A stretch of 34,455 nt of DNA from NCBI GenBank assembly GCA_002269645.1, contig NIVC01004812.1, forward strand, positions 1 to 34,455. The letters are read 5' to 3'. The notes beneath the pieces were generated by a model. The model was not told the origin of the DNA. It saw nothing but the letters and a program-made list of their open reading frames with translations, and did no database searches. The first letter of the stretch is position 1. Every line of letters begins with the position of its first letter. This document shows, one piece after another, positions 13,929 to 34,455 of this stretch. The stretch comes from Macrostomum lignano (taxonomy: Eukaryota). The translations under genes and the position numbers were made by a program.

Positions 13929-13944
13929 TGACACGCAGACTCAC

Positions 13945-14296
13945 CGCCCATATTAATCAGCGTGTCATTTGCCAGAGCCTTTTCAAGGTCTTTAAACAGA
14001 GGATTATCGGTGGCCGACACTTCGTAGAAAACGCCCAGCACCGCCAGGCCATTGGGCCGACTGGCTGCCATGCTGATATTGGCATAATCTTTGGAATTGT
14101 AGAACACCAGGTGACCTTCGGCTGCGTAAGATTTCTTATCCAAGGTGTGCTCGGAACCCTGCTGATCAGAGCTGCCCCAGTGCCAGTGCAGCTGAGCAGC
14201 TGTGTACATCTGGTCCGCGGCAGTCTGGCCCATTGTGATTGATAGCTCGGGCGACCAGTTCAATTCGATTTTGTGACCGTCGTTTTTCAGCGTGAA
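13945..14296 (-). CDS. Alpha carbonic anhydrase, exon 2 (zinc ligands)
   Basis: CTCCAG|TTC acceptor and G|GTGAGT donor; NDGHK (His64-like), QLHWHWG (His94/96), GSEH, EGHLVF (His119). Confidence 0.93.
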
Positions 14297-16174: not shown

Positions 16175-17867
16175 TTACAGATGCCGCGAGCTGTACACCG
16201 TGATGCACCTGAGCAAACGCCGAGCATACTCCGGATGAGTTGCATCCACCTTGAAGCGTTGACTCCACATGTCGCTGAAGTCGCGATGTGCCGACTCCAT
16301 CGCCTGCTCAGACCAAAACCCAAGGCCTCGGCGACACCCATATTGTACTGCCATCGCTTCCAAAAACTGCGGCACGTGGTCAATGAGGGCATGGGCCTTC
16401 GGAGTGATGTTGATGGCCAGAGCGTGGTATGCCGCCTCGAACTCTTTGACTGCTGTATCGTAGCCTTCAAGCAGTTGTTGGCCGAAGCACTTCTGCTGGA
16501 CAGCTCGCAGGCAGCTGAATGCATGGGCGACAGGCACTCCGCTGAAGGCAGCGTGGTCAGCGAGGATCTGGCGCAGGCTGTCGACTCCACCAAGCAGTCG
16601 GTCGCACTCATTGCCATTGAACTGGCTGCCATGATACGGTGAGCGCCGTACGTGAAGAGCCTCAGCCCACTGTGCAGCACGGACTCCGTCGGGACCCAAT
16701 GCTGTCAGGCGCTGCTCAAGCTCGTCGTACAGCCTGTTGACAAGGCCTAGCAGCAGGTGGAGCTCCATGGGTGGCACGGCTTCTAGCGTGTTTGAACTGT
16801 CTGGCCAATTCAGCAGTGGTTGCCTGATGCAGTTGTGGAATGGCTCTCCTGATGGCTTTGAGCTTCGTTGCCCCTCGATGCGCTGATACTGGGCAGCTTG
16901 GCTGCGAATAGAGCCAAAAGTCCGCAATCTGACACTGCGATGGGGATTGGCGAACTCTTTTCGAGGCGTCTCGCACCACGGGCAGGGATGGGCGCTGCTG
17001 GCGCTCTGCAGTCCAAGAAGCACATTTGCAAGTTTCATGTCCACGGAGCTGCAGAAAGACACGTCTTCTAGGTTCAGCAGATTTAGCACAGTTTGCACGT
17101 TCTCATAGTACTCCGGTACTTTTTCAACTGCTGCGATAATTAATAGCTTCTTTACACCACCTTCGGCAAAAGGGCTGCTGCCGGCCTCGGTGACACCGCC
17201 TAGTAGAACAGATGACTGCTCCCCGGACCGGACCAATGTCATGCAAACTTTAAAAAAGCCGCGTCCTCCATCAATACCAATCTTAAGTAGGAAGCTGCCA
17301 GGATCAGGATCCATTCTCCGCCGTGCCAGCACGTAGCCCACCAAGCCAGAGACGTTGGAGCAGAACACAACAGTCCGCGTTTCAAATTCGCCCGTGCTGC
17401 AACGGACTTGGACTGACTCTGTTGCATAAAATGGATCCAACTCGCTATTCAATTCTGCCAGGCGATGCAGGAGGTTTGGCTCGATCGAACTGCGACCCTT
17501 CCACTCACGGAAGAACTGGGCCGCCTGTCTGGTTTGCCGACCACTCAAACCGATCGCATCCTGCATCCTGGCAATCTCACTAGCCGGCACTGATATGTCA
17601 CCACCCGCGGAGCACCTGCTACTCTGAGCGGACACGCTTAGCGTGATTGGGCGGCCTCGAGTTGCCAGCCGAATAGGCGAATCGCCACCTGCGTCTGTTA
17701 ACTTGGCTTTGAGGACGTCACTAGCATGAATTTCTGAACCACGCGGATCACGTGACAGCTCAGAGCAGATGTTATTTAGCCAGCGAGATTGCGTACAGGT
17801 GTGGCTAAGACCCCTGCCAATGGTGGAGTGACATCTCTGGCAGATGGTGATGGGACGAGCAGGTGGC
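16175..17867 (-). mobile_element. Chapaev/Transib-related (CMC) DDE transposase ORF, 5' part cut off by the Polinton
   Basis: Motifs IGIDGG, VDMKL..LLGLQ....HPCPWC, PPMELHLLLG, TPKAH...H, GFWSEQAMESAH. By my translation the frame stays open upstream of 17635 (C..C..H.C cluster CQRCHSTIGRGLSHTC) up to the junction at 17867. Confidence 0.75.
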
Positions 17868-18137
17868 AGTAGTATATAAAAAGACGCTTCTAGACCCAGA
17901 GCACTTTTTTAATGACCGTTTTAAGGGTCTAGAGGGGGGACACGGGGGGTAAATAAAAAAACACATCTAAACACCATTAATACATCTAATCACCCATAAT
18001 CACCCCTAACAATAAAAATCATTCCCAACACTTCCAAACACTCCCCAACACCCCCCTCGCGTCCCCCCTCTTAAGACCTTAAAAACGGCCATTAAAATAA
18101 GGTCTGATCTGTAAGCGTCTTTTTCTATACTACTACT
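17868..18137. repeat. Imperfect inverted repeat at the Polinton left terminus
   Basis: 17868-~17950 (AGTAGTATATAAAAGACGCTT...) pairs with ~18048-18134 (...AAGCGTCTTTTTCTATACTACT), about 80% identity by eye. Confidence 0.85.
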
Positions 18138-18191
18138 CTATAACCCCTTGCCCGCGCCGCAGGCGCGAAGGGTCTTTTTCTGTTACTAAAA

Positions 18192-18506
18192 ATGACCCGA
18201 GTTTACACCTTTTCTGTTAGTGATACTTTTGAGACTGTTGCTAAAAATGCAGAGATAATAAAACAACATATTTTGAATGGAATAATTGATGAAGTTTATT
18301 TAAAATATGACGACAAGCATGACCTAAAGCTTTATCCATTAGAGCTAGATGAGATGTATGATTTAGAACAAGAGGGTGAGTTAATATTTCAACTTGGAGA
18401 TTATTTAAATTCGGATGATTGGGAGGTTAGATCAACAGATTCCGAATCAACAAATAGTTCATATGAAACCAGTGATTCAGAGAATGAAAGTGAAATTTTT
18501 ATGTGA
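18192..18506 (+). CDS. Polinton hypothetical acidic protein (104 aa)
   Basis: AT-rich ORF with the AAAAATG start context typical of the element; no motif recognised. Confidence 0.6.
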   Translation: MTRVYTFSVSDTFETVAKNAEIIKQHILNGIIDEVYLKYDDKHDLKLYPLELDEMYDLEQEGELIFQLGDYLNSDDWEVRSTDSESTNSSYETSDSENESEIFM

Positions 18507-18522
18507 AAAAAATATTTAAAAA

Positions 18523-18747
18523 ATGAACTATTATTCTATAACAGAAACGACGTTTATTATGAAAAATATATATAAAAAAATGAAGGTAAATTATTCCTAC
18601 ATCGGAAATGTTCCAATTAATGAACTTAATGAAAATTTAAGTTTGATAACAGTTGAACAAATGTCAATAATAATATTAGTAACAATAATAGTAATAATAT
18701 TGTTTTTGTTTGTAATAAAAAATTTACTACCATGTTGTCTTAAGTAA
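18523..18747 (+). CDS. Small single-pass membrane protein
   Basis: Hydrophobic IIILVTIIVIILFLFVI followed by KNLLPCCLK; converges on the restored integrase stop. Confidence 0.55.
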   Translation: MNYYSITETTFIMKNIYKKMKVNYSYIGNVPINELNENLSLITVEQMSIIILVTIIVIILFLFVIKNLLPCCLK

Positions 18748-18757
18748 CTGTTTGAAC

Positions 18758-21700
18758 TTAGTTCGCAGACATTATCTGGTTCCAGTGCTGGGCGTTAACT
18801 AGTTAATTGTTTAACTAGTTAATTAACTAGTTAAATTTTTTTTAAAATCGTTAAATTTTCGTTAAATTTTTTATGTATTAACTAGTTAACAAAAATCGTT
18901 AATTTTTTTCTGTAAGTTAAAGTTAAATGACAAAAGTTAATAATTCCGGGAAATGGAGTTCCCCGGGTTCAAAATCCGCGGGTTTCAACAGCTTGTATGC
19001 ATTAAAAAGTAAAATTAATACATACATAAAATAACTTCGCCTTTCTAAGCATTATTTAACGCGTCACAAACTACTATTACATGTATATAATTTCAGTTAC
19101 AAGTTATAATGTATTGAATATTCCGGAAGATTCTGGAATCTTCAACTATTATCTATTGATATTCTACCCAAGGACTACTAGAAGTTATCGTTGTACATAG
19201 GGATGTCGATTCCCCGGGGAATTTTCTTATCGGGGACCCGAGTAATTTACTGTCATTCCCCGGGGACCCCGGGGACTCCGGGGAAAAATAAGTAAAAAAC
19301 GGCGGATAACTTAGATCTTAAGTCACTAAGTGGCAATTCTTAAACTTTGATTAAAGCTTTGGATGGACTACATGTTCAAGGCGCAAGGGTAAAAACTTAA
19401 GGCAATGTTTGTTTAAAACTGTATTTGACAACGTGGCATCACCAAAACGTGCGCGCACCTTTATCAGAAAGGGTCCAGACTCCGGAGGCGGAAAATGCAT
19501 ACTCAGCAGCTGCACTCGAGGGAGGATAATTAATGAATGAGACTGTTTTTATAATCGGAATTTTAATTTCTTGCAGATACATGTAAATCACAATTTTGTC
19601 CTGTCTAATAGGGAGTATTTTGTTATTGTATGACACCCCCCTATGCGTTAGTGACTGACGCAGGATATGGCGCTGTGCCTGCGTCAAATGCGTCAAGCCG
19701 TCAACGCAGACCAACACAATAGTCAGTAAGGCTTCTTTTTCCTGACGGCTTTCTACGCTCGTACGTTCAATTTGCTTGATTGAAAGACTCATAGTGAAAA
19801 AAAACATTCAAACGGGTCGCTAACTTCATAAGACCGAAATTTCACAACGCCGAAAATTCTGCATGCAATACAATCCTTATTGTAAGGTTTTCTACGATGT
19901 GAAATTTCGATCTTATGAAGTTTCGGTCTTGTGAAGTATGGTGTTTCGGCGTTGTGAAATTTCGGTCTTATGAACCCCCCCCCATTCAAACGTGTGTTGT
20001 GTTTGAAATAATACATTGAAATAAGCAGTTTTGCGGTAAAAAAAGCATAGACAGAGTTTCAATCAGCTTTCTGTGAATGATTTTCTTATTTAAATGGCAA
20101 AAATTTAGTTAAAAATGCTTTTTTTCTCCCCGGGGTCCCCGGTCTAATTCCCCGGGGAGTATTCCCCGACAAGCTCCCCGGGGCCCCGGGGAGCCCTCCC
20201 GGGGTCGACATCCCTAGTTGTATACATGTAGTTGTAATTCTGCCTTCCCTGCTGCGCTGCTCCGCGTCGCGCTGCATAGATATTTCCTTGTCGCGTTGCA
20301 CCATTCTGCGCCATGTCGCGCCGCCGCGCGACTTCCCGCGCCGCCGAACGACCTCCTGCGCTGCGTCGCGCCACCGCGGCGCGCCGCGCCGCACCGCGAC
20401 CTGGCCACAGCCGCGCCGCGCCGACCTGAAATTTAAAAAACGCGCCGGACGCATGTCCGGGAAAATGTCACTTTTTCCGTTAGAGAATTATTAACTTTAA
20501 CTTTTAACTTTTCAGAAGTTAAATTTTGGGCAAAAGTTCAATAATTAACTAGTTACAGTTAATTTTTTTGGAGCAATTAAATTAACTTTTTAACTTTTAA
20601 CGAGTTAAAAAAATTGATTAACTTGCCCAGCACTGTCTGGTTCTCATAAAAAGAACCCAATATTTCTTCACCATCCTTATCAGCAATTATATAGGTTGTA
20701 GGATTTGTATTTAAAACTTTACTGATGGTAAATTTCTCACTTATTTTCCAATATCCTTTTCTTCCCTTTTCAAACTTATCTTTCCATTTATAGATATAAA
20801 CAGAATCACCAACCTTAAAACCTTTAGTTTTCTTTTTTTCAAAATCTCCAAAAGTAACCCTAACATTTTCAGGATTGTTATAAGCTTGTTGAGGAGTCAT
20901 CTTTATCGCCGAATGATATGAATTGTTATAATCTTTCACTACGTCTGGTAATATTTTTACCCATTTTTGGTTACCATTAAGACTAAACTGAAACCATAAT
21001 TTCTTACCTAAAGTTCTATTAAATCTTTCTATTAATGCGTTTTTACTCTCTCCATAAATAGAATAAATTTTATTAATATACTCCCCATTCGCGTCCTTTT
21101 TCCTTTCTTGTCCTTTTTCAAAATGGTACAATTTATACATGTGAGGATTGTAAAATTCTTTTCCTTCGTCAACACACAACCTTTCACTTTTTTCTCCAAG
21201 ACTTCTAAAAGCAGCAGCAACCTCCTTTCCCTTTTTGGATTTTAAAGGAACAGCCCACGCGTATCGAGTAAAACCATCTAATATGGTTAAGATATATTTA
21301 TATCCTCTTTCGTTCGGCATCGACATTAAATCAGCATACCAAATTTCATTCTTTTTGAAGTTCATGATTTTTCTATAAAATTTAGGTTTTCGATATTCTT
21401 TATGAAGAATCTTTGCCTCATCAGAACTTAACCCGCCGCCACTTAACAACAAACACTCAACACAATTATTTCCATGTTGATTATAATTAATTCCCAAACC
21501 AAATTTAACTTTAGACTGCAAGATCTTTTTAACCATCCACCTAGTTAATTTTTGACCTACCGATAATCCCTGCAAGTTATCTAATCCTTGAATCATTTTT
21601 TGATCGGCTTCATGTTTTAATCTTAATGCTTCCTCGGGTGTGTTCTTATCAGCATCTCTGTATGCTAAGTCATGATAGTATGCTAACCAATCAATTCCAT

Positions 21701-22226
21701 TTATGGGAATTGAATCGGCTTTTGGGGTGTCATCAGGATTTAATCTCAAATCTAAGCGAGTGCCGGGTAGTTTACCCTCAATCTTTCGAAAGAGGCTGGA
21801 GCACACCTTAAGCGGCGATAATTACCGCCCATCTCCGTCTGCTCTCTGAACCTTCTCCTTATATTTAAAATACTTAGGAGCTTGGCTGCGCATTGCCACC
21901 GTGTCTTCAAGCTTTTTACCATCGAACCATAGGTTCGCGGACGAAGTCCGATTGGGAAGAGGAGTTACCTCTGTTCCTTCAAAAGATTTCTCAATTGAAG
22001 TGGTACTTGAAGCTGTATGACGGGTTTCACGCAATTTGGAGATGTCGCCACAAATAGTGACTAGCAAGGACATTGCCTTCCTCACTCAGGCCACGGGTTA
22101 ACCTGTGAAGTTCATTGATGGTAGGTGTAGCTCACCCGTATACCTCCCAGTAGTAAATATTGGTGGTAAGCTTGTTAATCCTTTTTGAACATCTAAAAAT
22201 CCTCCTTCAAATACTATTTGGTTCAT
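18758..22226 (-). CDS. PLA2-like domain fused to retroviral-type (rve) integrase; split by a group I intron and by a hAT insertion (exons 22226-22101, 21767-20636, 18774-18758; 424 aa restored)
   Basis: ELHLPSMNFTG^PGTRL...PINGIDWLAYYHDLAY...HEADQKM...KVKFGLG is a parvovirus VP1u-like PLA2. Integrase motifs IWYADL (D), ILDGFTRYAW, VDEGKEF (D), IERFNRTL (E). Removing the hAT restores GSFYENQIMSAN*. Confidence 0.85.
19198..20216 (-). mobile_element. Second hAT-derived element nested in the first, with a remnant of the hAT dimerization domain
   Basis: TIR TAGGGATGTCGA / TCGACATCCCTA; 8-bp TSD GTTGTACA/GTTGTATA (7/8); CCCCGGGG subterminal repeats; PPSSAAAEYAFSASG (~19439-19528, -) resembles the hATC PASSA.SER.FS..G motif. 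Confidence 0.8.
19814..19982. mobile_element. 169-bp MITE (MULE-like) nested in the second hAT
   Basis: 9-bp TSD CATTCAAAC (19805-19813, 19983-19991); perfect 31-bp inverted repeat 19825-19855 / 19944-19974. Confidence 0.85.
21768..22100 (-). ncRNA. Group I self-splicing intron (IC1-like, with P5abc), 333 nt, no internal ORF
   Basis: P1 exon CAGGU / GCCUG with U-G at the splice site; P3 CAUCUCC (22044-22038) / GGAGAUG (21836-21830); P4 UGCGU/GCGCA; P6 GCC/GGU; P6a CUCCU/AGGAG; P7 GAGAGCA (21846-21840) / UGCUCC (21803-21798); core P AAAUUGCG, Q AAUGCGCAGCC, R UCAGAGAGCA, S AAGGUGUGCUC; P8 GGCG/CGCC; P9 with GAAA loop; P9.0 AG/CU; removal restores the frame and the PLA2 motif. Confidence 0.92.
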
Positions 22227-22734
22227 TTTTAATGTTTAAAAAACATGTTTCTATCAATTTAATAATTTCTAAATATTGGTCACCATATAAAAAATTTAAA
22301 GCAAATTCCCCAGTTAACAAGGTAACTCCATTATCAAATACTTTTTGTACGGGGTTTTTAGTAGTATTATTAATGCAAATATAATATAAATCAAATTCGG
22401 GATTAACATATTTAAATTCTAATAACTTTTGAATATTTCTAAATCGACTTGATGAATTATCTGTGTTATCAGAAGATTTTAACTCTAACGCAACTTTTCT
22501 TTCTGTATGAATTAAATCAATTTTATTTACTTTTTCAAAACCAAAATGTTTAATAGCTAATAATTCATAAAGAGATCCAAGTCTCATTTGTATTGTTTTA
22601 ATACGGTTTGCAATTATTAATTCATCTTGAAATATTTTATTTAGTATTCTGTCAGAACCAACTTTATCATAAATAGGCTTACAAAGGTGGTCTTTTATTG
22701 TTTCATCCATTTTATAAAAAAATAAATTTAACAA
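22207..22734 (-). CDS. PD-(D/E)xK nuclease-like protein (type II restriction endonuclease-like)
   Basis: E...IDLIHTERKVALELK...NTDNS pattern recalls Eco47II-like enzymes of large DNA viruses; likely start MDETIKD at ~22710; overlaps the PLA2 start by 20 nt. Confidence 0.55.
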   Translation of the reverse strand: MLNLFFYKMDETIKDHLCKPIYDKVGSDRILNKIFQDELIIANRIKTIQMRLGSLYELLAIKHFGFEKVNKIDLIHTERKVALELKSSDNTDNSSSRFRNIQKLLEFKYVNPEFDLYYICINNTTKNPVQKVFDNGVTLLTGEFALNFLYGDQYLEIIKLIETCFLNIKNEPNSI

Positions 22735-22738
22735 TTAA

Positions 22739-23410
22739 TTAAACTCCAGTATGTCCAGCAGCTTTCGCAGCAGCCAAAACAAGTTCTCGCGGTGTTTTAA
22801 ATCCATCACCAACAGCTGGTTTGTTATTTATAGAATTAACAATCCATTTATACAAGCTGGTATTTTTAACAGCTCCTCCTAACTCATCATAAAAAATTCT
22901 AGCACTTATTGATTTATCCCTAGTATATAAATCGGGGTTAAATTTTACCCTAGGGTTCGTAATAATATTAAATGCTCCGCCCAATTCTCTATATAGTTCA
23001 TTTCGATCTTTAACAACGTTACCAATTCGATAATTACCACCACCTAAATCTGTCACAGCAATACTAGTTGGTGCAGGTCTCGGATATTGTTCAACTCCAC
23101 CCCTAATCTCTTCACGTCTAATTTCTGCAACTCTAAATATTGCTTGATCAGTCTCATAAGCAGGCGGCTCATCCAAAATTTCATCCTCTTTTGGCTCCGT
23201 ATTTTTAGCAATTTTTTCCAGAAGATCTTTATCTGTTTTTTCTAGTTCACTAATTTTCCCAGTAATAGGATTAACAAAAGGAGCAGCAAATCTTTCGCCA
23301 GCTAATTGTATTCCTAACTTTCTTTTTTGTAAATTTCTAACAAAATCAGAATATCTTTGCTTCTCTTTATAAATCGCTAACTCTCCATCAACGTCCATAA
23401 ATTGACTCAT
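22739..23410 (-). CDS. Polinton hypothetical protein (223 aa), possible virion core precursor
   Basis: Intact ORF with AAAAAATG start; several xxGG motifs. Confidence 0.6.
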   Translation of the reverse strand: MSQFMDVDGELAIYKEKQRYSDFVRNLQKRKLGIQLAGERFAAPFVNPITGKISELEKTDKDLLEKIAKNTEPKEDEILDEPPAYETDQAIFRVAEIRREEIRGGVEQYPRPAPTSIAVTDLGGGNYRIGNVVKDRNELYRELGGAFNIITNPRVKFNPDLYTRDKSISARIFYDELGGAVKNTSLYKWIVNSINNKPAVGDGFKTPRELVLAAAKAAGHTGV

Positions 23411-23444
23411 TTTTTAACATAAAAAACTTTTTTAACTTAAAAAA

Positions 23445-24917
23445 ATGGCTGAAACAAAAACTATGTGGAGTGATAAATTTCATTTCAAAAAGCACCGACA
23501 GTATATTAATGAGGTCAGAGCAAGAGATTTAAATTATACCCTACCAACAAGTGATAATTCAAATAACTTTACTACTGGAACGGTAACTTTTGACATCGGC
23601 GCAACCAACACTATATTGGATATGAAAAATGCGTTTTTCCGCGTTAGATGGTTGTATACTAGAAATGATGGAACTGCTCTTGCAGCCGGAGATATCGCAG
23701 ATCGATCCGGAATAATAATAGAAAATGATTGGTTTTATAAATGTTTTTCCCAAGCTCAACTAACTGTTAATGGTGCTGAGGTTGAGACATCATCAAACCC
23801 CGCAGAGATTAATGGAGTTTTGAAACATTTAAATTATACTTATTTATCAAAACAAGTTGGTGATAATGTTGGGTGGATGCCGGATAAAGGTAACGGTCAA
23901 GCAGTAGTTTTCCCTAATGTACAAAACGCAGCTGGTGCAGATACTGCAGCTCTAATTGCTTACCTTAATACAAACATAGTTCCAGTTGTAACCACTATGA
24001 CTAATACAAAAGATATTAACACCGGCTTTATAGATCGTCAGAAAAAATTCCCAGTTGCAGTTTTAACCACGGCAACGGCATATGAGCAGGACTTTTCAAT
24101 CTTCCCGCTATTTGGGTTCTTCTCACCAAATCGGGTATGGAAAGGATTAAAATTTGGGATACAGTTGCAAATATCTGGTGGATATCAGCCTAGGATACTT
24201 TATGGAACCTCAATTTCAACCGATATAGCAGTTCGTATAGATTCAATTCAATTAGTCGTACCAACTATTGAGGTAACAGCCCCACTTTTAAAACACATCG
24301 ATAATCAGTTAACGCATGATCAGGAAATATTTTATTTGAATCGTCGACATTTTATGCGAACCATTAATAATAACCAGGATTCATTCCAGTGGCAAATACT
24401 GACATCAAAACGTCGGGTGAGATATATTTTTGTTTGGTTTAAGATAACAAATAGAAGGAGTAAAAGAGCAAATGGGGATTTATATTGGCTTCAATCCGGT
24501 GCCATAGCAGAACAAGCAGCCACCGCAACAGACAATGCGGCTGCAGCTATTAACGAGTTTAATGTTCAGAATATCCGCCTGCAGGTTGATGATCAATATT
24601 ATCCGGTTAAAGACCCCCTAAATTTAAATATAGCAAATAATAATGTTAATGATTTTATAAAATATTATCAAGATTATGCTAAAAATGAAGCGTATGCCGT
24701 CCCTCAGTACACACCCACAGAGTTTCTAAACATTCATCCAGTGGTTGTTTATGATCTAACGGCACAGAAAGAAAACGTAGCCAATATTGGACTTAATTAT
24801 ATGTTAGAGATTAATAAAACCGGTAATCAGGCACTTGACGCCCACGTATTGTTTCTAGAGGAATATATGTCAATTGCTAAAGCTGATGGCACGATTGTTC
24901 GGGACGCGCCACTTTAG
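23445..24917 (+). CDS. Major capsid protein (double jelly-roll, Polinton PY)
   Basis: FSQAQLTVNGAEVE, RYIFVWFK, NVQNIRLQVDDQYYP..PLNL, PVVVYDLTAQKE match Polinton MCP patterns; 490 aa, intact. Confidence 0.85.
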   Translation: MAETKTMWSDKFHFKKHRQYINEVRARDLNYTLPTSDNSNNFTTGTVTFDIGATNTILDMKNAFFRVRWLYTRNDGTALAAGDIADRSGIIIENDWFYKCFSQAQLTVNGAEVETSSNPAEINGVLKHLNYTYLSKQVGDNVGWMPDKGNGQAVVFPNVQNAAGADTAALIAYLNTNIVPVVTTMTNTKDINTGFIDRQKKFPVAVLTTATAYEQDFSIFPLFGFFSPNRVWKGLKFGIQLQISGGYQPRILYGTSISTDIAVRIDSIQLVVPTIEVTAPLLKHIDNQLTHDQEIFYLNRRHFMRTINNNQDSFQWQILTSKRRVRYIFVWFKITNRRSKRANGDLYWLQSGAIAEQAATATDNAAAAINEFNVQNIRLQVDDQYYPVKDPLNLNIANNNVNDFIKYYQDYAKNEAYAVPQYTPTEFLNIHPVVVYDLTAQKENVANIGLNYMLEINKTGNQALDAHVLFLEEYMSIAKADGTIVRDAPL

Positions 24918-25000
24918 TGTCGCAGTGCAAAGCACGTCGCCCCCGCTGTAAGCGGTGCAGGTCTCCGACCGTCGCGCCTATTTAAATTATTTCTTTAAAA

Positions 25001-25755
25001 ATGGTAAAGGCAAAACACGATAAGATATTTCCAAATGATCCTTTTCTTTGTTTAGTAATCGGAGGATCAGGTAAAGGAAAAACACACTTTGTTTACGATT
25101 TATTAACAACAGATGGAATGTTAGACTATAATAATTTAATAATTTATACTAACAAACCTAGAAAAAATATTATGAATTTCTTAAACATGGATTAAAAAAC
25201 AAATTAAAAAAAGATGTCTTGTTTAGAATGTTAGGAGCATATGAGCAATATGAGGATGATGACGAACCGCGATTTACACTCGATGACATTGAGGATTTAT
25301 GTAAAACAATGGCACAACAACCAGAAAACATCACCGAACGAGCCCCAACTGTTAGAGTATCAACCCGATTAGCCTATGATCAAATTCCAAAACATGATAA
25401 AACACTAATTATTTTTGATGATTGTATTAATGACGGTGATCAAGAATTGCAAAAGGAAATTTTTGTTAGTGGTAGAGGAGATGGAATTGGAGCTTTTTAT
25501 CTAACACAGTCCTTTAGAGAATTAGAATCGATTATAAAAAAGAATGCAAGTTGTTGTGTAATGTTTGATTTAGATAATTATGATTTACAAAATATACACG
25601 CTAGATTTAATCCTGGGTTGGATACAAAACAATTTAAAAGCTTGTGTAAAAAAATTTGGGATGATAGCCAATACAAACATATATATATCAACCCAAGGTT
25701 AGAAAGGAAAAATCGAATCTTAAAAGATCTGATGAAAGAGGACGATGAGGATTAA
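25001..25755 (+). CDS. FtsK/A32-like packaging ATPase, one frameshift near 25155-25165
   Basis: Walker A GGSGKGKT, Walker B LIIFDD, SGR...IGAFYLTQS; the two ORFs join via EKYYEFLKHGLKNK in the second frame. Confidence 0.88.
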
Positions 25756-25770
25756 TTTCCCACTATAAAA

Positions 25771-26556
25771 ATGACTACAAATTTAAATACTATAAAACAA
25801 TTGGTAGATCGAACTAATTCAAAATTTAGTACAACCTTACAGTTTATAATGACAACCAGTGAACAACGTATTCAATTGCGCGACCCGTTACAACTTGATC
25901 AAAGCCTAAGTTATCAAATAGGTTTGATACTATTTTCGGTTTTTAACATGCCTCAATTAATTAATGCAACAAATAATCAATTTAGATATTCTAAAGATTC
26001 CGGAGCCAATTGGACAACATTTAGCGTTAACCCAGGAGCGTATTCCTATACCGATTTGAATGCTTATATAGAAGGAGAATTAACAACTAATGGAGATTGG
26101 GTATCAGGCGCAATTGTTATAGGGGTTGATTTACCATCTGGCAGATTCACACTATCACTAGGATCCGGATATCAGGTTGATTTCACAATTGCAAATTCAC
26201 TCAGAACCATACTCGGATTTAATTCCCGAATCGTTACCACATCAAGCACCGGCGATACTGTTGGAAATATTGAGGGTGGTGTTAATACAATTAATATTAC
26301 AACCGACATATCAAACGGCGGTTATATAACAGATAATAATGGAGTTTTGGTTCAACGTGGAATTATTTATTCAATCCCATTTCTTGCTGTTCCAATTGGA
26401 GAGAAAATGATTGTTTCACCCCAAACCCCAATATATTATCCTTTAAATCAATATAGTGTTCAATCAATTTATATTAGGATTGTAGATGAAAGCGATAGAT
26501 TAATAAGTTTTGGTGGGCAGTCAATAACAATAATTTTACGTATAAAACAGGTTTAA
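25771..26556 (+). CDS. Minor capsid protein (penton, single jelly-roll; PX)
   Basis: beta-rich; INITTDISNGGY...GIIYS....P.GEK..V.P..PIYYPL....VQSIYIRIVDESDRLISFGGQSITIILRIK is typical of Polinton mCP. Confidence 0.8.
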   Translation: MTTNLNTIKQLVDRTNSKFSTTLQFIMTTSEQRIQLRDPLQLDQSLSYQIGLILFSVFNMPQLINATNNQFRYSKDSGANWTTFSVNPGAYSYTDLNAYIEGELTTNGDWVSGAIVIGVDLPSGRFTLSLGSGYQVDFTIANSLRTILGFNSRIVTTSSTGDTVGNIEGGVNTINITTDISNGGYITDNNGVLVQRGIIYSIPFLAVPIGEKMIVSPQTPIYYPLNQYSVQSIYIRIVDESDRLISFGGQSITIILRIKQV

Positions 26557-26566
26557 TATTGTAAAA

Positions 26567-26737
26567 ATGGGTAACAATAGTTTAAAAAAACAAACGGAAA
26601 AAGTTCAAAATGCAAAGGATAATTATGAAATCGAACTAACAAAATTGAAACAACTGCAAGCAGAAAAAATCCGAAAGGAACTGTTAAAATCCAAACCAAC
26701 GAAACTAACCAAAACCAAGAGTTTTTCAGGAACATAA
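26567..26737 (+). CDS. Small basic protein (56 aa, MGNNSLKKQ...), below the ORF-track cutoff
   Basis: AAAAATGG start; fills the penton-protease gap exactly; Lys-rich. Confidence 0.5.
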   Translation: MGNNSLKKQTEKVQNAKDNYEIELTKLKQLQAEKIRKELLKSKPTKLTKTKSFSGT

Positions 26738-26738
26738 A

Positions 26739-27176
26739 ATGACTATGAATTGGCAGTTGTTCAAACAAAGATATGGAACAGACACAACAAGCAATATTGA
26801 ATTAACAAATTGGGCGCGACAACTAAAAATAAAACCATTCAGATGTGTTATGCGAGATGAGATCAAAGACTTACCACAATATGGATCTTTCATTGTTAAT
26901 ATTGAAACAACAAAAGAAAACGGGGTTCATTGGTCAGCAGTTTATTCAAAACCTAAACTTGTTTATTTTTTTGATTCATACGCGCTTCCTCCGTTACAGG
27001 AAATAAAAGATAAATTTAATCATACTAAAAATCGTTTATGTGGAGATCATCATGAACAATTTCAAACATTTGACAAAAGTTATTGCGGGCAAGCGGCGTT
27101 GTATTTTTTATATAAAATTAATAACTCTAAGGAAAGACCCGAAGCATTTAAAGCAATTTTAGATTCTATAAAATAG
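26739..27176 (+). CDS. Adenain-like cysteine maturation protease
   Basis: GVHWSAV (His), YFFDSY (Asp), QTFDKSYCG (Gln, Cys). Confidence 0.9.
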   Translation: MTMNWQLFKQRYGTDTTSNIELTNWARQLKIKPFRCVMRDEIKDLPQYGSFIVNIETTKENGVHWSAVYSKPKLVYFFDSYALPPLQEIKDKFNHTKNRLCGDHHEQFQTFDKSYCGQAALYFLYKINNSKERPEAFKAILDSIK

Positions 27177-27186
27177 ACAGTAAAAA

Positions 27187-29232
27187 ATGTTATTTTCTGG
27201 AACACCCTCATGGAACGGAACAACAAGTACTGGTGGAGGCGCATCTGGTGGAATAAGTGTTACATTCGGAGATAACCGATATATTAATGAAGATGAAGGT
27301 TATAAAAAAACTGAAATTGATAATAAACTAAATTTGAAACGGAATGTTGCAGATTCCTATACCAAAACTCAAATAGATGATTCATTAAATTTAAAACGCA
27401 ATACAGCCGATTCTTATACCAAAACCGAAGTTGATAATTCCCTAAATTTAAAACGGAATGTTGCCGATTCTTATACCAAAACTGAAGTTGATAATTCCCT
27501 AAATTTAAAAAGAAATATAACTGATTCTTATACCAAAACTGAAGTTGATAATTCCCTAAATTTAAAAAGAAATATAACTGATTCTTATACCAAAACTGAG
27601 GTTGATAATTCATTAAATTTAAAACGGAATGTTGCAGATTCTTATACCAAAACCGAAGTTGATAATTCCCTAAATTTAAAAAGAGATATAACTGATTCTT
27701 ATACCAAAACTGAGGTTGATAATTCCCTAAATTTAAAACGGAATGTTGCCGATTCTTATACCAAAACCGAAGTTGATAATTTAGTTGGAGGTGGAGCCCC
27801 AAAACAGGATCGATTCCAAACGGTTGAAACCGGACACGTACCAACTATGGCAGCTTGGAGTGGAAATGGTTTTGCAATATCCGCAAGCACAGCATTTAAT
27901 ACAACCGATTTTGCAAGTTGGAAAGCGTTTGATGGTAATGATTCAACAGATTGGGCAACAAATAATACTCAAACTGATTATTGGATTCAAGTCCAATGTC
28001 CATCCGCGATAATGTGTTATAAAATTGATTTACGTGGGAGACCATCACCATCAACCGAACACCCAGCATCATGGCGATTTGAGGGCAGTAATGACAATAC
28101 GAGCTGGGATGTTTTAATACCGGCTGGCAGTTCTGTAGAAATAAATAACTCAACTCAAACAATTAATGTCACACAAAATTTTGATAAAACATATTCATAT
28201 TTCAGATTGTTCTGTCTTACATCAACATCGGGTTCTACCAACCCCGGCTTATCAACTTTTCAGATTTATAGACAGACTTTTACAATTCTTGATTTAAATT
28301 TGGGAGTTGTTAATCAATCAATTGATATGGGTGGTAACACAATTACTAACATATCTACTATAAACAATAACAGTTCTGTTGTTACTAAAGGTTATGTTGA
28401 TACGCGAGTAACCCAAACGGCAGATGGCCGAATGTCTTTTAACGATAAAATAAAATTGGATGGCATACCGGCAATTGATGCCGCTTTGTACGAACCCGTA
28501 ATTTGCAATTGGACTGGGTATCAAAATCCAACCACTGCCGGCGATATTTTTCCAACAGGAAGTTTCGTTGGCGACGCTTCTTATATCGATTATCAAAATG
28601 GAGCTAGAATTACTCGTGAAACCTCAGGTGTAAGTGGTGCTTTACAATTTAATTTCACCCATTTTCGTAATATATCCGCCTCCTTCTATTTCCGAGTTGC
28701 TAATGCTACAGGAGATGGTGCTGACGCTGTTTGGTTTTATGCATACTGTCATGAACGACCAACAAGTGAATTTGGAACTGGATTAACAACCGACGCCGGC
28801 TTGATAGTGTTTGCGAGTGAATGGCATGACAGAGTTGGGGTTCTTTGGAGTAATAAAAAATCAGACGGAGCAACAGTTCGTAATGATGTTCTTAATGACG
28901 CCGATCAAACGATAACTTATGCAAATATTGATAATGGCGATTGGCATTTATTTGAAATTAATATTTTAAATCAAAGAGTTTGGTATCAATTAAGATCATA
29001 CAATGTTTCAACCAAAGTTTATACACTAATTGGGCAAAACTTTTTTACATATGATAGCGGAACTTGGGGAGAGTTGGATAAAACAGGAACTCTTATGGGG
29101 TTTGGTGCTCGAACTGGAGGATCGGATGCTGCACATTTTATTCGTGGTGCCGCCGTTTGTGGTAGCACATCAGCAGGCTATGATTTTGCTGCGACCGCAT
29201 ATTTGGAACAACCACCCACACAGATCAGCTAA
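27187..29232 (+). CDS. Fibre/receptor-binding protein: 19-aa YTKTEVD repeat stalk, discoidin (F5/8C)-like domain and lectin-like domain
   Basis: ~8.5 x 57-bp repeats (27301-27780); KAFDG...W...YWIQV...W.FEGSND...W...YSYFRL; VVTKGYVD; GDGADAVWF...GDWH...GFGARTGG. Confidence 0.75.
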   Translation: MLFSGTPSWNGTTSTGGGASGGISVTFGDNRYINEDEGYKKTEIDNKLNLKRNVADSYTKTQIDDSLNLKRNTADSYTKTEVDNSLNLKRNVADSYTKTEVDNSLNLKRNITDSYTKTEVDNSLNLKRNITDSYTKTEVDNSLNLKRNVADSYTKTEVDNSLNLKRDITDSYTKTEVDNSLNLKRNVADSYTKTEVDNLVGGGAPKQDRFQTVETGHVPTMAAWSGNGFAISASTAFNTTDFASWKAFDGNDSTDWATNNTQTDYWIQVQCPSAIMCYKIDLRGRPSPSTEHPASWRFEGSNDNTSWDVLIPAGSSVEINNSTQTINVTQNFDKTYSYFRLFCLTSTSGSTNPGLSTFQIYRQTFTILDLNLGVVNQSIDMGGNTITNISTINNNSSVVTKGYVDTRVTQTADGRMSFNDKIKLDGIPAIDAALYEPVICNWTGYQNPTTAGDIFPTGSFVGDASYIDYQNGARITRETSGVSGALQFNFTHFRNISASFYFRVANATGDGADAVWFYAYCHERPTSEFGTGLTTDAGLIVFASEWHDRVGVLWSNKKSDGATVRNDVLNDADQTITYANIDNGDWHLFEINILNQRVWYQLRSYNVSTKVYTLIGQNFFTYDSGTWGELDKTGTLMGFGARTGGSDAAHFIRGAAVCGSTSAGYDFAATAYLEQPPTQIS

Positions 29233-29302
29233 TGCTGCGACCCTACGGGGCGATCGCCTAAGGCGCGGACTTCGTCCGATCAGTTAAATATTTCTATATA
29301 AA

Positions 29303-29629
29303 ATGGCTTTTAGTAGAACTCCATCGATGCGGCAAAATAATGTTATTATTCCTATTCCTAAACAAGAATCAAATATAAAAACATTCAAATCTCATACCAA
29401 ATTTTTATTTAGTACTGTAAATGTTCAGGATAATAAGAAGCTTCAAGAATTAATTAAGTTATTAAAAAATCATATTATACTTCAAGAGTTTTGGAAAATA
29501 GGATTTAAATGGGAGAAAAAAGAAAGAATCACTCCAATACAATACCTATTGAGCTCGGGACAAATCCCCAAAGAGCGCGGGGAATTCATTTTGGTGCTAT
29601 TAAAAATAGACGAGAATGTCGGTATCTGA
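29303..29629 (+). CDS. Polinton hypothetical protein (108 aa)
   Basis: Intact ORF with TAAAATGG start; overlaps the next gene. Confidence 0.55.
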   Translation: MAFSRTPSMRQNNVIIPIPKQESNIKTFKSHTKFLFSTVNVQDNKKLQELIKLLKNHIILQEFWKIGFKWEKKERITPIQYLLSSGQIPKERGEFILVLLKIDENVGI

Positions 29630-30272
29630 AGCAGATAAATGGGAACGCGACCGGTTCAACCAACGTAAAGGTCAGATGTTAAGTAATGTTGATCGTATTA
29701 ACTATGATTATGATTTATATACTAAAAAAGTAAGAAGAGTTTCAAACCATATAAGAAATATGGACTTTTTCAATATTGGATTTGGAAGCTTATCAATGTT
29801 ATGTGTAATCGTTTTAGGTATTTTACAATCTATTCCAACTCTTAATTTATCTCAATTATTTTTAGGTATTTCAATTGGCTCAATATCAGGTTTTGAATTG
29901 ATCAGAAACTTATCAATACTTTTAGCAATTAAATTATATCTTAAAAAAAGAAAGGAAAAATATAAATCATTAAGAGATGTTGCCAAGCAATATAAAAATC
30001 AGTTATATTTATATGTGCAAAAAATATTGGATGACGGAGAGATAACGATTCATGAATTATCAACCGCGGTTGAGTTATATGAAAAATATTTAAAAGATAG
30101 AAATAGAATTTTAGATGTTGAAACTTTTACCGATATGGAATTAAAAGAGTTGAGACTCGATAAACCCAAAGCTCCACCGATAGAAACATTAGGCATTTAC
30201 GAACCTGAAACTATTGCTACTGGGGCACAAAGCCCGCGGTCAGGAAGTGCGGTAGAACTTCAGGTTGTTTAG
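29616..30272 (+). CDS. Two-TM protein of a type common in Polintons
   Basis: Two hydrophobic segments followed by KKRKEKYKSL and KILDDGEITIHE pattern. Confidence 0.65.
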   Translation: MSVSEADKWERDRFNQRKGQMLSNVDRINYDYDLYTKKVRRVSNHIRNMDFFNIGFGSLSMLCVIVLGILQSIPTLNLSQLFLGISIGSISGFELIRNLSILLAIKLYLKKRKEKYKSLRDVAKQYKNQLYLYVQKILDDGEITIHELSTAVELYEKYLKDRNRILDVETFTDMELKELRLDKPKAPPIETLGIYEPETIATGAQSPRSGSAVELQVV

Positions 30273-30752
30273 TTTTTCTAATGCATATGTTATATATTCT
30301 TCCCAAAGTGGTAACTCTCTTCTGATCCTAGGTTTAAATTTTTTATCAATACATAAAAATTCCAATGACTTTTTCAGTAACATTTCGTTAGGTATGTTAC
30401 CTATCCTTATAAACTTTGTATTCTCTCGAATAAGAAAATTGAAATAATATCCAACTAAAATTAAAATCCTTTCGGAGTCTTTCGAACTTAATCCCTTTCC
30501 TTTATTTAAATGGAAAAAGTTATTATATAAATAAACATTATTTCCGGGAATTAAAATTGGATCAGAAATGTCTCTTGTAAGATTTCTTAAAATTGTATTT
30601 TTAAAATAGTAATATGAGTTTTCAATCTTTTTTGTTTTTTCAAATTGATATATTTTAGAACATGAATAACACATATGATATATATCTCCGTTTGCTGTTT
30701 GCCCTCTGTGCATAGTCACATTACATTTATTACATTCGTAAATGTCTTTCAT
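30240..30752 (-). CDS. Hypothetical protein with N-terminal Zn ribbon
   Basis: CNKC...CYSC; AAAAAATG start. Confidence 0.6.
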   Translation of the reverse strand: MKDIYECNKCNVTMHRGQTANGDIYHMCYSCSKIYQFEKTKKIENSYYYFKNTILRNLTRDISDPILIPGNNVYLYNNFFHLNKGKGLSSKDSERILILVGYYFNFLIRENTKFIRIGNIPNEMLLKKSLEFLCIDKKFKPRIRRELPLWEEYITYALEKLNNLKFYRTS

Positions 30753-30778
30753 TTTTTTGTTATTTTTTTAGATTAAAA

Positions 30779-31111
30779 ATGGAGAGCTGGTTCAAAACCG
30801 ATTCTAATGTGATTAATTATCTCACACCCAATATGTTGGAGAATAAAGAATATAATATTATATGTTTGAGACAGGTTAAATTTATTGGGCTTCAATCAAT
30901 ATTTTTACAATTAGATGGGCAAAAAATTTTATGTCTAAGCGGAGATGATGTTAAAAATTTTCCTGTTTTAGTTATTAATAAACCTAAAGCGTTTGTTATG
31001 AAATACTGCAACGAGGGTGGATTGCAATTTAAACTAAAACAAACAAATAATAAAAAGAGTGATAGGACTGTAAAATTGGCGGCTGTTTGGGAGGATGACG
31101 ACGAAGACTAA
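30779..31111 (+). CDS. Polinton hypothetical protein (110 aa)
   Basis: TAAAAATGG start, acidic tail. Confidence 0.55.
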   Translation: MESWFKTDSNVINYLTPNMLENKEYNIICLRQVKFIGLQSIFLQLDGQKILCLSGDDVKNFPVLVINKPKAFVMKYCNEGGLQFKLKQTNNKKSDRTVKLAAVWEDDDED

Positions 31112-31126
31112 ATTTTTTATAAGAAA

Positions 31127-31375
31127 ATGGATACGATAAAAATCCTTATCACTAAAGAGCGTGAACTTAATGATATTAATAAAAAAATAAATATAATTAT
31201 ATCTCAGAAATATCATGAGTATGGGGACGATATGTTTCCCATCCGATATGAAATGGATAAAAGAAAACGTTTTATTAAATCTGCAATTGCTTATGCTGAA
31301 ACAGTAATTGAAATCGAAATAGATAGGTTGGTTAGAAAAATAAAAAAACTTAGGAAAAAAATAAAGATTGTTTAA
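31127..31375 (+). CDS. Small coiled-coil/basic protein (82 aa)
   Basis: GAAAATGG start; K/I-rich helical sequence. Confidence 0.5.
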   Translation: MDTIKILITKERELNDINKKINIIISQKYHEYGDDMFPIRYEMDKRKRFIKSAIAYAETVIEIEIDRLVRKIKKLRKKIKIV

Positions 31376-31491
31376 GTTACCCTGACGACTGCGAGGAAAA
31401 TTGGCCTTCAATATTATATGAAATCGAAATGGATATTATGCTTAAACAATTACATGCTTTAGTTTTTTTCCGCCCCGAAGGGTCGCGGATT

Positions 31492-31740
31492 TTATCCGAT
31501 AAGTAATTTTTCTGTTAATCTCTTCCAGTTATTCAAGACTTTTTCCTTATTTAATTTTTTAAGTTCTTTTGGAAATGTTGAATAATAATTATCTATATCT
31601 TTTTCATATTCTAGAAATGTATTATATTCACAATCACATTCGGATTCACAATCACAATCGTAATAATAATTATTTATTGCCGCTTTGTATTCATTATATT
31701 TACTTATTATATCTTCTTTTTGTTTTTTATCTTTTATCAT
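31492..31740 (-). CDS. Small hypothetical protein (82 aa, CDCESECDCE)
   Basis: ATGA overlap with the PolB stop. Confidence 0.5.
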   Translation of the reverse strand: MIKDKKQKEDIISKYNEYKAAINNYYYDCDCESECDCEYNTFLEYEKDIDNYYSTFPKELKKLNKEKVLNNWKRLTEKLLIG

Positions 31741-34455
31741 ATTTTTATCTCTTCTTTTAAACCAAATGGATATGTTTTAATTTTATCATCTAAATATCTT
31801 TTATCATCAAATGGACTTAATGTTTTTTTATCTGTCTCGATGACAAACATCTGATGCTTATCTGAATTTAATCGATATTGTGGAGCATGATAATTTTCAA
31901 TTGTATTAAGGTAATCTAAAAGTACGTTTTTATAATCATCAAATGTTATCTTTTTAACTGCTGCCCTTGATACCCCTTTTATTTTTTTTACCTCTCCCTC
32001 CTGTCCTAAAACTTTAAATGCATAGCATTTGATCTTATTGCTATAAACTCGGTTATGATTTTGCTATTTAATTCATCTTTCATTTTAAGTACAACTTTTT
32101 TATTTTGATCTGATTTTAAAGGATGGTTATCCGGATAGTCGGAGGTATCCAATGTATCCTTAATTTTTTCCATATCTTTATAGACATCGAACCTTTGGTT
32201 CGCGGGCTTTGCCCGATCCTCTGTTTCAACCTTAAATACCAAACTGTCGGTGTCTGCATATATTGGATAGTTATCTGGCCATGTTTTATTTATAACATCA
32301 TAATAATATTCATACATTACCAGCTTTGCATAATCTAAAACAACCATTCCAATAAATATTGGTTTAAGAAATTTTGTTGTTTTATTTCTCATATGAATAC
32401 CCATAAAGTTATCATCAAATTTTATAAAGTCTTTAAAGTTAGGTTTTGAGAAATATTTCTTTGCTTTATCAATATCCTTTTCTAAATGGAATTGGGTTCT
32501 ATCTCTAATATTTTCAACCGTTTTTCCATAAAAAGCATTATTCATTAATTTCCAATAATCTTTCTCAAAATTTGTTTTTGACATCTGTCTCTGATTTGAA
32601 TTAAAATCAATATATTTAGCTAACCAATCTTCCTCAATAAACGATATTGTTCGATGTACTTTAGACACTTTTAATCCCTGCTTTTCATAAAATTGTAGAA
32701 GCTTATAATGCACTACATAGTTTTTCTTATCATGTAAATTTAATATTAATTTTTTGTTGCTAGATGTTTTGCATTATCTACTTTAAGATAATCTTTTTGT
32801 GTTTGTGATAAATCATCTTCATTAACTGAACAATGCTCTGGAGCTAAAGGATATTTATATGTTTTTGCTTTTGCTTCCCGAGTATATTGCAAATCCACCT
32901 CTACAATACAGCCCCTTCCTTCGGGAATATTTTTGTAATAATCGGGGTCATCTTCCCATTGGAAATCAGCTATTGGTAATTTTTGTTTCATACAACCACC
33001 GTATAAATTGTTTGCATCTAGATATAATACATATGATGATTTTTCTTTTTTATTATAATTTGGTAAGATATTTATTATTTACTTTAGTATATCTATCTCC
33101 TAGTACACCCGAGAATCCGCCGCGAATTCCTCTCTCAATCATTAACAACATATCATGATCAGTTAGTAAATCAATCTTAACATCTGTATGTTTCAAACCA
33201 CAAGCCCATGTTAATCCCGGTGCACTGAAACAATATGCGGGATCAATTTTAAAATTCTCATATGTATGATTCCTAAAGTTTTCAAATGCATCAGCTAATA
33301 GGAGAACATCTGCTTTAAGATATAGATTATGATAATCTTTAAATGTTTTACAATTAAAGTATTTCCATACTTTTTGAGCGTGTTCATAATCCGATTCACT
33401 TATATTTGATTGTGATAATGTGGAATAAAACTTTTCTATGGGCGGTAATTCGGTATGAAAAAATACGTCTTCAGATGTTACATATTCATATGGATAGATG
33501 CCCTTACGAGTTAATAGCATTAGTTCTTCCTCGGATAGTTTTTCTTTTTTGAAACGATTCAATAGTATTGGAAAGTTTTTCTTTACTATTTCTAAATCCC
33601 ATGGTTTGGAACTAATGATGAAACAACATTTGCAAAGATGTTGATAAGAATCTCAAGGAATCTAGAAAAACTAGATGGGAGTATTTCTTACCATATGTTA
33701 TTGATATGTAATTTTCTGATGTTTTAGGTAATATATTTATTTCATATTCATCCTTTCCTAAATGAAGCAATTCTCGAACTAAGAAATGAAAATCATATCC
33801 GGAACCATTATGAAAAAATACTGGTATTTCCTTACATCCTTTTCCTTCTTTGCATTACATGATCTACATGCTGCCCCTCGATAATTTCCTGTTAGATGAC
33901 AATGTTCTCGTATCTTATTATTCTTACTTAAATGTCTTTTGCACATAAAACAATTTGTTGCATTTTTATAATTGTCTCTATCCTTATTTGTCATATTAAT
34001 ATTTTTTGATAATTTATCATATTGATTTTGAATATATTCAAATACATTTACTAATGATTCTGCCATGTGCTTAGCTGCATCATTACCGTGGTAAGTAATC
34101 ATCCTTGATTTAAATATATGATCAGCTACAGAGTGTACATATATACAATAACTATCGGAAACTGTTGTGCCAATTTTTTTTGTGCATTCGTCCCGTAGGG
34201 TCGCGTGCTTTGCACGATCCCCATCATCAGATGCCGTCTGTGATTCTTTTAAGGGAACATTTGTTGCTTCAAAATCAGCATATATTACTATTGGTTTTTT
34301 AACTGCCATATAATGTTGTTGGAACTTTAGGGTTTGCATCTTCAGATGCTGGCATTATAGCATTAGTAAATTTGTGATCTAAACAAAATCGTTGGTGGTT
34401 TTAAGAGCTGTTTCATCCTTTTTTAAATGTAAAACAATTTCTACATAGTGGATAT
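31737..34455 (-). pseudogene. polB: Protein-primed family B DNA polymerase with endonuclease VII-like insert; about 10 single-base frameshifts; 5' end outside window
   Basis: ExoI PIVIYADFE; EHCHLTGNYRGAACRSCN; FHNGSGYDFH; GIYPYEY; YLKADVLLLADAFENFR; YLDANNLYG; KLMNNAFYGK; YADTDS; LSPFDDKRY. Confidence 0.92.

Follow-up and report, generated by a model that had tools for sequence, protein, structure and literature searches.

A restriction-type nuclease and a group I intron as probable weapon and shield in two Polinton families of Macrostomum lignano

Mobile group I introns that take part in collaborative homing in phages sit at conserved codon pairs and have a nuclease gene within or next to them (PMC3984707; this and the other papers cited by accession or preprint number were available in part, and our statements refer to those parts). 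Homing introns of mirusviruses likewise hold nuclease genes, 15 of them of the PD-(D/E)XK type, within a nuclear DNA virus (PMC12768974). Introns of Rfam family RF00028, 309 to 376 bp long, are described from Polinton-like viruses of a few protist groups (PMC12220804), and homing nucleases have been proposed in Polinton-like viruses (PMC11296320; 10.64898/2026.10.13.758929). According to two reviews, nuclear group I introns occur only in rRNA genes of microbes (PMC3679873), and among metazoans only non-bilaterian lineages and some sharks have group I introns (PMC10964413). Here we describe a 34,455-nucleotide (nt) stretch of the Macrostomum lignano genome (contig NIVC01004812.1, positions 1 to 34,455), referred to as the window, in which a Polinton/Maverick copy carries an RF00028 intron in a gene for a fused phospholipase A2 (PLA2)-like and integrase protein, directly beside an open reading frame (ORF) for a nuclease resembling the restriction enzyme Eco47II.

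We report the structure and position of the intron, the fusion that it interrupts, the fold of the nuclease and its linkage to the intron, and the purge of the word GGNCC together with a control family. These observations suggest that nuclease and intron probably act as weapon and shield in two Polinton families of this genome: family A, to which the window copy belongs, and family B. The features on which the argument draws are as follows.

17868..34455, no strand: Polinton/Maverick copy, family A; starts AGTAGT, right end beyond the contig end
22207..22710, minus strand: free-standing ORF for an Eco47II-like PD-(D/E)XK nuclease of 167 amino acids (aa), predicted GGNCC cutter
22101..22226, minus strand: exon 1 of the PLA2-integrase gene; ATG at 22226, 42 codons, ends NFTG, TAA directly after
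21768..22100, minus strand: group I intron, ORF-less, 333 nt, RF00028; splits the Gly-Pro of the PLA2 calcium loop (GGT↓CC)
21513..21767, minus strand: exon 2, PLA2-like domain; starts PGT, HD in YYHDLAY
20636..21431, minus strand: exon 2, rve integrase part; D146, D200, and E247 (numbering of P0001)
18783..20635, no strand: nested DNA transposon, 1,853 bp; terminal inverted repeats, 8-bp target duplication (18775-18782 and 20636-20643)

GGNCC is missing from the window element. Outside the nested transposon, its 14.7 kb contain 0 GGNCC versus 13.8 expected (P 1e-6), and family B has 0 versus 16.4 expected in 16.3 kb (P 8e-8). Of 256 gapped words, none ranks below GGNCC in either family, and the capsid proteins of the two families are only about 23% identical (the capsid ORFs of the window element were assigned by size and position only). 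All 6 GGNCC to the right of 17868 lie in the 1.85 kb of the nested transposon. An unrelated Polinton family from the same genome, family C, serves as control; it has observed counts of 16, 16, and 14 against expected counts of 16.1, 16.2, and 16.0, and the family C stretches examined gave no match to the nuclease.

The purge extends to coding sequence. The 15 long ORFs of the window contain no GGNCC and, the intron-split pair aside, no Gly-Pro; synonymous shuffles of the same ORFs gave a mean of 4.7 GGNCC (0 in 1 of 300), and codon permutation gave 11.6. Because the Gly-Pro codons GGN-CCN always spell GGNCC, the site is retained in the PLA2 loop. Gly-Pro counts in homologous proteins (15 versus 61.6) were not used, as these proteins are not independent of one another and their Pro-Gly counts are low as well. 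Among the sister loci, intron-bearing family A stretches have no GGNCC in 7/7 cases (6.5 to 9.3 expected in each), and the downstream stretches of intron-bearing family B copies have none in their shared part in 4/5 and one in the fifth (L163). The intron-free junctions read GGNCC in 18/18. This junction is the only GGNCC in four of the eight ten-kb stretches that include one; the others have 2, 2, 4, and 5.

The protein encoded next to the intron belongs to the family of enzymes that cut this word. Its catalytic residues D65, E76, and K78 are nearly invariant, and Pfam RE_Eco47II matches 92 of 103 aligned relatives. A structure model (predicted local distance difference test [pLDDT] score, 95) contains no extra DNA-binding domain. 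The best fold match of the model is EcoO109I (Z 9.8, root mean square deviation 3.7, 164 residues aligned; the next row scores 6.3), and Foldseek ranks 2 to 6 include EcoO109I and AvaII. The recognition sites of these two enzymes are RGGNCCY and GGWCC, respectively. An Eco47II homolog is given as a GGNCC cutter in PMC10305163, with a hedge by its authors. We infer that the 167-aa nuclease cuts GGNCC; the site purge and the intron position point to this indirectly. Folding of the single sequence yielded no usable model (pLDDT 37), and the nuclease had no match in a PDB sequence search with the alignment or in a phage collection. In IMG/VR, neither the nuclease nor exon 2 had a relative, and an intron core motif was not matched exactly; 80 loci that fit a looser motif had neither nuclease nor exon 2 nearby.

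The nuclease thus compares with Eco47II, EcoO109I, and AvaII in its PD-(D/E)XK fold, in its catalytic residues, and in the absence of the target word from its carrier. Unlike those enzymes, it resides in a eukaryotic nuclear element, it was found without a methyltransferase motif set, and protection apparently comes from site loss and the intron. The methyltransferase search was a simple motif scan of three element stretches, in which the right end of the window element is absent; it returned isolated ENV matches only. We do not file the protein as a classical homing endonuclease, a class defined by long targets, because the word counts point to 5 bp.

Linkage of the nuclease to the intron is close. 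A genome search returned 40 scored family A copies and 28 scored Rfam matches, the latter all in family B. Scored in 1.5- to 2-kb flanks of the junction, the nuclease is present at 45/74 intron-bearing versus 0/18 intron-free loci, and longer intron-free stretches gave no nuclease match either. In every located case, the gene lies inside or right beside the intron. Family B has a nuclease ORF, 55 to 70% identical, inside an intron at the same site, as does metagenome contig L109, where the nuclease is 54% identical, the intron ends in G, and LSGG, a linker motif of the window fusion discussed below, is missing (L109 is too short for a GGNCC count; 0 versus 0.4 expected). In the window, the end of the nuclease ORF overlaps the ATG of exon 1. 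The window intron contains the following short frame.

21822..22073, minus strand: 83-codon frame in the intron, matching C-terminal tails of intron-encoded nuclease homologs

Such tails read into the intron core in 6 of 28 nuclease homologs checked. Because of this, and because the window frame resembles the tails, the family A intron probably once held the nuclease gene, of which the 83-codon frame is a likely remnant. The slot before exon 1 in family A is occupied by the Eco47II-like nuclease at 16/47 loci and by an endonuclease VII-like gene at 31/47 (PHROG E 9e-7). One such gene, L012:2311-2877 on the minus strand, is endonuclease VII/HNH-like and encodes about 189 aa, the first and last of which agree with those of the PD-(D/E)XK gene. 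CCNGG, CANTG, CANGG, and CCNTG are also under-used (0.3 to 0.5) in family A, not in family B, and these words are perhaps the target of the endonuclease VII-like slot gene.

Intron-free fused alleles are found in both families, at 18 of the 92 distinct loci tabulated, and most outside homologs of the fusion are also intron free. Between intron-bearing and intron-free family B alleles, divergence is 9 to 14% in the 120 nt before the site and 2 to 3% beyond 400 nt after it; a peak at the site is expected from co-conversion. Coexisting intron-free alleles and divergence that peaks near the site are also features of collaborative homing in phages (PMC3984707). The motif of the endonuclease VII-like slot gene is the one named for F-CphI. 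The present case differs in that the carrier is an animal Polinton with a predicted 5-bp target made unique by a genome-wide purge. In addition, the remnant tail in the family A intron suggests that the nuclease moved out of the intron, opposite to the direction that has been published.

The intron was recovered by a targeted Rfam scan (RF00028, 61.1 bits, E 5e-15; gathering score, 50), a fast scan of the whole window having missed it. Stem P1 joins the last five bases of exon 1 to an internal guide at 22091-22087 (CAGGU/GCCUG), with a U.G pair at the 5' splice site. The P7 strands, 21846-21840 and 21803-21798, pair as GAGCA/UGCUC and retain the G-C guanosine-binding pair. This P7 is a compensatory variant of those in relatives: GACUU/AAGUC in family B, GACUA/UAGUC in L109, and GACUG/CAGUC in locus L092. 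L092 also has a compensatory P1, CGGGU/GCCCG. P9.0 is formed by 21797-21796 with 21770-21769.

The intron had been expected to end in G, as is typical, but its last base is the A at 21768, and that expectation has to be given up. Three lines of evidence agree on this 3' end: P9.0, the GPGT motif produced at the exon junction (kept in 49/69 homologs), and G-ending sister copies. Among family A loci, the terminal base is A in 36 and G in 6 of 42; in family B it is G in 28/30, the other 2 not being parsed. A coral mitochondrial group I intron without a terminal G splices in vivo (PMC6545197), so a terminal A does not mean that an intron is dead. A 3' splice site at G21777, where the Rfam match ends, was rejected because this G is paired in P9 and splicing there would insert GKL into GPGT; moreover, the G-ending copies carry their G at the position of 21768. 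The one spliceosomal GT/AG pair tried at these ends leads to an in-frame stop. In four contig sets of uncertain type compared with this region, no exon-exon joint over the intron was among the matches listed; as contigs are no proof of absence, this is evidence neither for nor against splicing.

Variation within the intron was seen at two further levels. A 30-nt double-hairpin motif lies in the window intron (21923-21952) and recurs at 31471-31500, 32188-32217, and 34189-34218, both between genes and within PolB frames (DRAKPANQRF and DRAKHATLRD). Intron variants of 303 nt, shorter by 30 nt, also occur, and 29 nt at 21923 are missing from one contig set. The motif looks like a small mobile palindromic element. 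In loci L092 and L093, the 5' splice site is the same but the insert, about 330 nt long, is different: its P2 and P5 extension are those of the family A intron, and its core is another one (the P7 of L092 given above), missed by Rfam. The signature of this insert is also found in 13 of 113 rows of the genome search, and the insert looks like the product of a core swap between introns.

The gene that the intron splits encodes a genuine fusion. The original prediction held that unspliced RNA yields a 42-aa product closed by an in-frame TAA at the start of the intron, and the window copy agrees: exon 1 is 42 codons, ending NFTG. The claimed HD dyad and intact DDE triad are likewise present in exon 2, and Pfam on exon 2 alone detects rve (E 2e-7) and the PLA2-like domain (E 0.008). 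The proposed 424-aa spliced product fits the sister copies: 29 sister loci of the same genome were mapped, and exon 2 has 382 codons in 18 of them. The 424-aa figure does not fit the window copy itself, whose exon 2 has 396 codons because the nested transposon sits in its last codons.

A protein search gave 475 matches, the best 120 of which were listed; query and length favor fused proteins in this search. Among these best 120 of 475, 77 homologs have the PLA2 His and the integrase in one chain and 68 have both Pfam domains (hand count). The fusion is therefore not the product of a lost stop, and it is family-wide and also present in homologs elsewhere. The same genome has a large PF08398 family (150 matches) with PLA2 domains in frames of 128 to 337 aa, too short for an integrase; thus, both fused and non-fused PLA2 forms exist in the genome. 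The PLA2X of Alpha adintoviruses is described as its own gene, and the words "fused" and "fusion" are absent from the main text of that paper (PMC8502044). PLA2X, which is also carried by a Polinton with an integrase, resembles the window protein in that a Gly-rich basic motif comes after a PLA2 domain of the parvovirus type. The window PLA2, unlike PLA2X, is in one frame with the integrase and is not a separate ORF ending after a pX-like tail. Although such PLA2-integrase precursors are common in databases, we did not find one reported in the literature searched, which excluded most subscription journals and supplements.

We propose a mechanism in which the 167-aa nuclease would cut the 5-bp palindrome GGNCC. 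Both nuclease-encoding families have rid themselves of nearly all GGNCC, including every other Gly-Pro pair in the long ORFs of the window. The one retained site is the Gly-Pro of the PLA2 calcium loop, where the intron splits it in the DNA. Self-splicing would restore the Gly-Pro codons in RNA only, and the PLA2-integrase precursor would still be made and probably cut at GxG sites in its linker. Intron-free relatives, with in effect one site, would be cut there, and a near-unique site would thus let a 5-bp cutter home with the specificity of a single site. When the break is repaired with an intron-bearing copy as template, the intron would spread, and so would the nuclease that lies within it in family B and next to it in family A. 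Self-protection would require no methyltransferase, and activity of the nuclease may be limited to a late stage of the lytic phase, to a replication compartment, or to other viruses as targets. The evidence leans somewhat toward this reading in full, namely a Polinton with an active 5-bp restriction-type nuclease that is immune by purge and by an intron over the last site, hence both a homing drive and a weapon, and whose nuclease moved between in-intron and free-standing positions. The same modest lean covers its targets, which may be related elements, other viruses, or host chromatin.

Several observations weigh against this reading. The host flank has 44 GGNCC in 17.6 kb, and an unguarded 5-bp cutter should harm the host. 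The slot is filled by another nuclease-like gene in 28/44 intron-bearing family A loci, and since copies are related, the evidence amounts to about two independent lineages, not dozens. The purge is not perfect: intron-free family A stretches with 2 and 4 GGNCC exist, family B stretches have 1 (the intron-bearing L163), 2, and 5, with 3 in a distal stretch, and L120 has 1, in a span outside the shared element. Family A is also low in CCNGG and CANTG (0.3 to 0.5), 6 of 62 unrelated viral loci have a GGNCC deficit with no such nuclease nearby, and PolB frames of family C show a mild deficit (1 versus 3 to 6 in shuffles for three frames, 2 versus 5.8, and 6 versus 6.2). Gly-Pro is not strictly essential at the junction, as 5/69 homologs are without it, 4 of these having Gly-Ala. 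Finally, the terminal A found in most family A introns may make their splicing less efficient.

The same purge and site data would fit a weapon that does not home: during replication, the nuclease would degrade DNA of the host, a helper virus, or a competitor, the intron would be a mere shield that reached a conserved site, and gene conversion would be incidental. Bulk degradation is a task for which a 5-bp cutter is well suited, host DNA offers many sites, and the chlorovirus restriction enzymes that degrade host DNA offer a precedent. Two marks of homing, the nuclease gene being within or adjacent to the intron wherever it was located and the divergence peak at the site, make this explanation unlikely in our judgment, though it fares best among the alternatives.

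Somewhat less probable still is an ordinary homing intron, with a long target centered on the junction and a purge caused by off-target pressure or by an outside GGNCC cutter. Known homing enzymes have long targets (14 to 40 bp), and this explanation agrees with them and makes the problem of host toxicity vanish. It is also in keeping with the purge of copies that lack the nuclease and with the unrelated viral loci without GGNCC. However, GGNCC has been removed in all flanking contexts, family C of the same genome shows no purge, the purged word is the one cut by the family of the enzyme, and the protein is only 167 aa with no extra DNA-binding domain in its model.

The original prediction also proposed that ribozyme splicing serves as a switch, its efficiency gating production of the entry and integration precursor, and this we regard as very improbable: translation of unspliced RNA does stop at the splice site or no more than five codons from it, the terminal A in 36/42 family A introns could slow splicing, and Clostridium offers an example of a group I intron under regulation (PMC3984707), but both families have intron-free fused alleles (18/92 loci), as do most outside homologs, and the nuclease target, not a switch, accounts for the intron position. 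Nor is the opening TAA, previously read as a premature-stop feature, conserved, since TAT or TAC takes its place in 8/42 family A introns and in those of family B. No aptamer family matched the intron. An optional intron with a variable TAA is typical of a mobile intron and not of a switch that the element needs.

Cleavage of the precursor, which both the earlier proposal and our mechanism invoke, concerns three further features.

21492..21512, minus strand: KVKFGLG, GxG motif after the PLA2 domain, family-wide, candidate protease site
21432..21446, minus strand: LSGGG, second candidate protease site, lineage-restricted, with an H-x-N-N-C-x-x-C stretch before it
26739..27176, plus strand: ORF for a candidate adenain-like cysteine protease; His, Asp, Gln, and Cys motifs read from sequence

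LSGGG had been singled out as a match to the adenain consensus, and it is indeed present; what is conserved is GxG and not LSGG. GxG or GG follows the PLA2 domain directly in 70/77 fused homologs. The LSGG position (variants LSGGG, LSGSG, IYGKG, and IYGNG) fits [LI]xGxG in 88/93 genome loci across the two families, with a clear counterpart in only 4/77 outside homologs. The strict consensus, (M/I/L)xGG↓x or (M/I/L)xGx↓G, occurs anywhere in the linker of 13/77 outside homologs, and a shuffled 46-residue stretch holds it 6.9% of the time by chance. The protease candidate groups by features with Peptidase_C5 clusters (high score; family on 13 to 62% of members), and Pfam, PHROGs, and PDB sequence searches gave no match. 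In mavirus, a clan CE protease cuts GG↓X and GX↓G, and virions contain integrase and cleaved hydrolase (PMC6048507). The mavirus hydrolase and integrase, unlike the proteins fused here, come from separate genes, and cleavage of the fusion is only predicted. The PLA2-integrase precursor is rather likely to be cleaved somewhere in the linker; for cleavage at LSGG↓G in particular, the chances appear evenly balanced. The H-x-N-N-C-x-x-C stretch (21447-21491, minus strand) lies between the two GxG sites and is kept in both families, and cleavage at both sites would release a short Cys/His peptide. A separate 223-aa ORF at 22739-23410 on the minus strand has two adenain-consensus sites (IRGG and LGGG) and is a candidate core protein.

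The introns of protist Polinton-like viruses resemble the window intron in their RF00028 class, in size, and in being carried by Polinton-like elements. They differ in that they interrupt a short gene which precedes that for the capsid, and the available text assigns no nuclease to them (PMC12220804); the window intron is in an animal genome, in a PLA2-integrase gene, and with a nuclease. Mirusvirus introns differ in being spliceosomal and in protist viruses, and the available part of that report mentions no site purge (PMC12768974). The window intron and fusion were not found in the available parts of 10.1101/2023.08.22.554363, PMC11071296, 10.64898/2026.06.19.733378, or PMC3671162. Within the literature searched, we found no report of the intron, the fusion, or purge and shield, though an earlier report or Repbase note is possible. 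The present introns place group I introns in a protein-coding gene of an animal nuclear genome, and neither review cited at the outset (PMC3679873, PMC10964413) lists such a case. The proposed mechanism would give a concrete reason for the intron site, as the only place where the protein forces the nuclease target, and a route from restriction enzyme to homing endonuclease that needs only a purged genome and no longer target. Because homing needs two elements in one nucleus, it would also imply that animal Polintons, known as viruses mostly by inference so far, co-replicate and conflict with one another.

The window copy itself is damaged. From 17868, where AGTAGT presumably marks the left end of the Polinton, to the contig end, it contains PolB, an A32-like ATPase, the protease-like ORF, and the integrase. 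One piece of PolB matches protein-primed PolB (PF03175, E 1e-5), the rve integrase is also found by Pfam, and the packaging ATPase candidate matches Pox_A32 (E 0.007). The PolB gene is in pieces, and the nested transposon interrupts the last codons of the PLA2-integrase gene. The left end of this transposon has 40 scored copies in the genome with 97 to 100% identity. The transposon is hAT-like and non-coding, and its inner palindromes and repeats may represent further nested elements. A 681-aa ORF at 27187-29232 on the plus strand combines an F5/8 type C domain with seven repeats of 19 aa and probably encodes a fiber or attachment protein. At L120:1399-7713, a family B copy lies within or next to ORFs that belong to another Polinton-like element, the ATPase of which is distant.

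Host DNA makes up the left half of the window and includes exons of CPEB and carbonic anhydrase. Wnt and Prospero genes elsewhere in the genome mark the host as an animal, and Prospero points to a bilaterian. Between the carbonic anhydrase exons, at 12933-14057, is a 33-nt tandem array (26 overlapping copies reported) with open frames of more than 400 codons in both directions. Closer to the element, a 463-aa single-exon ORF without a Pfam match (16175-17566, minus strand) is possibly transposon derived.

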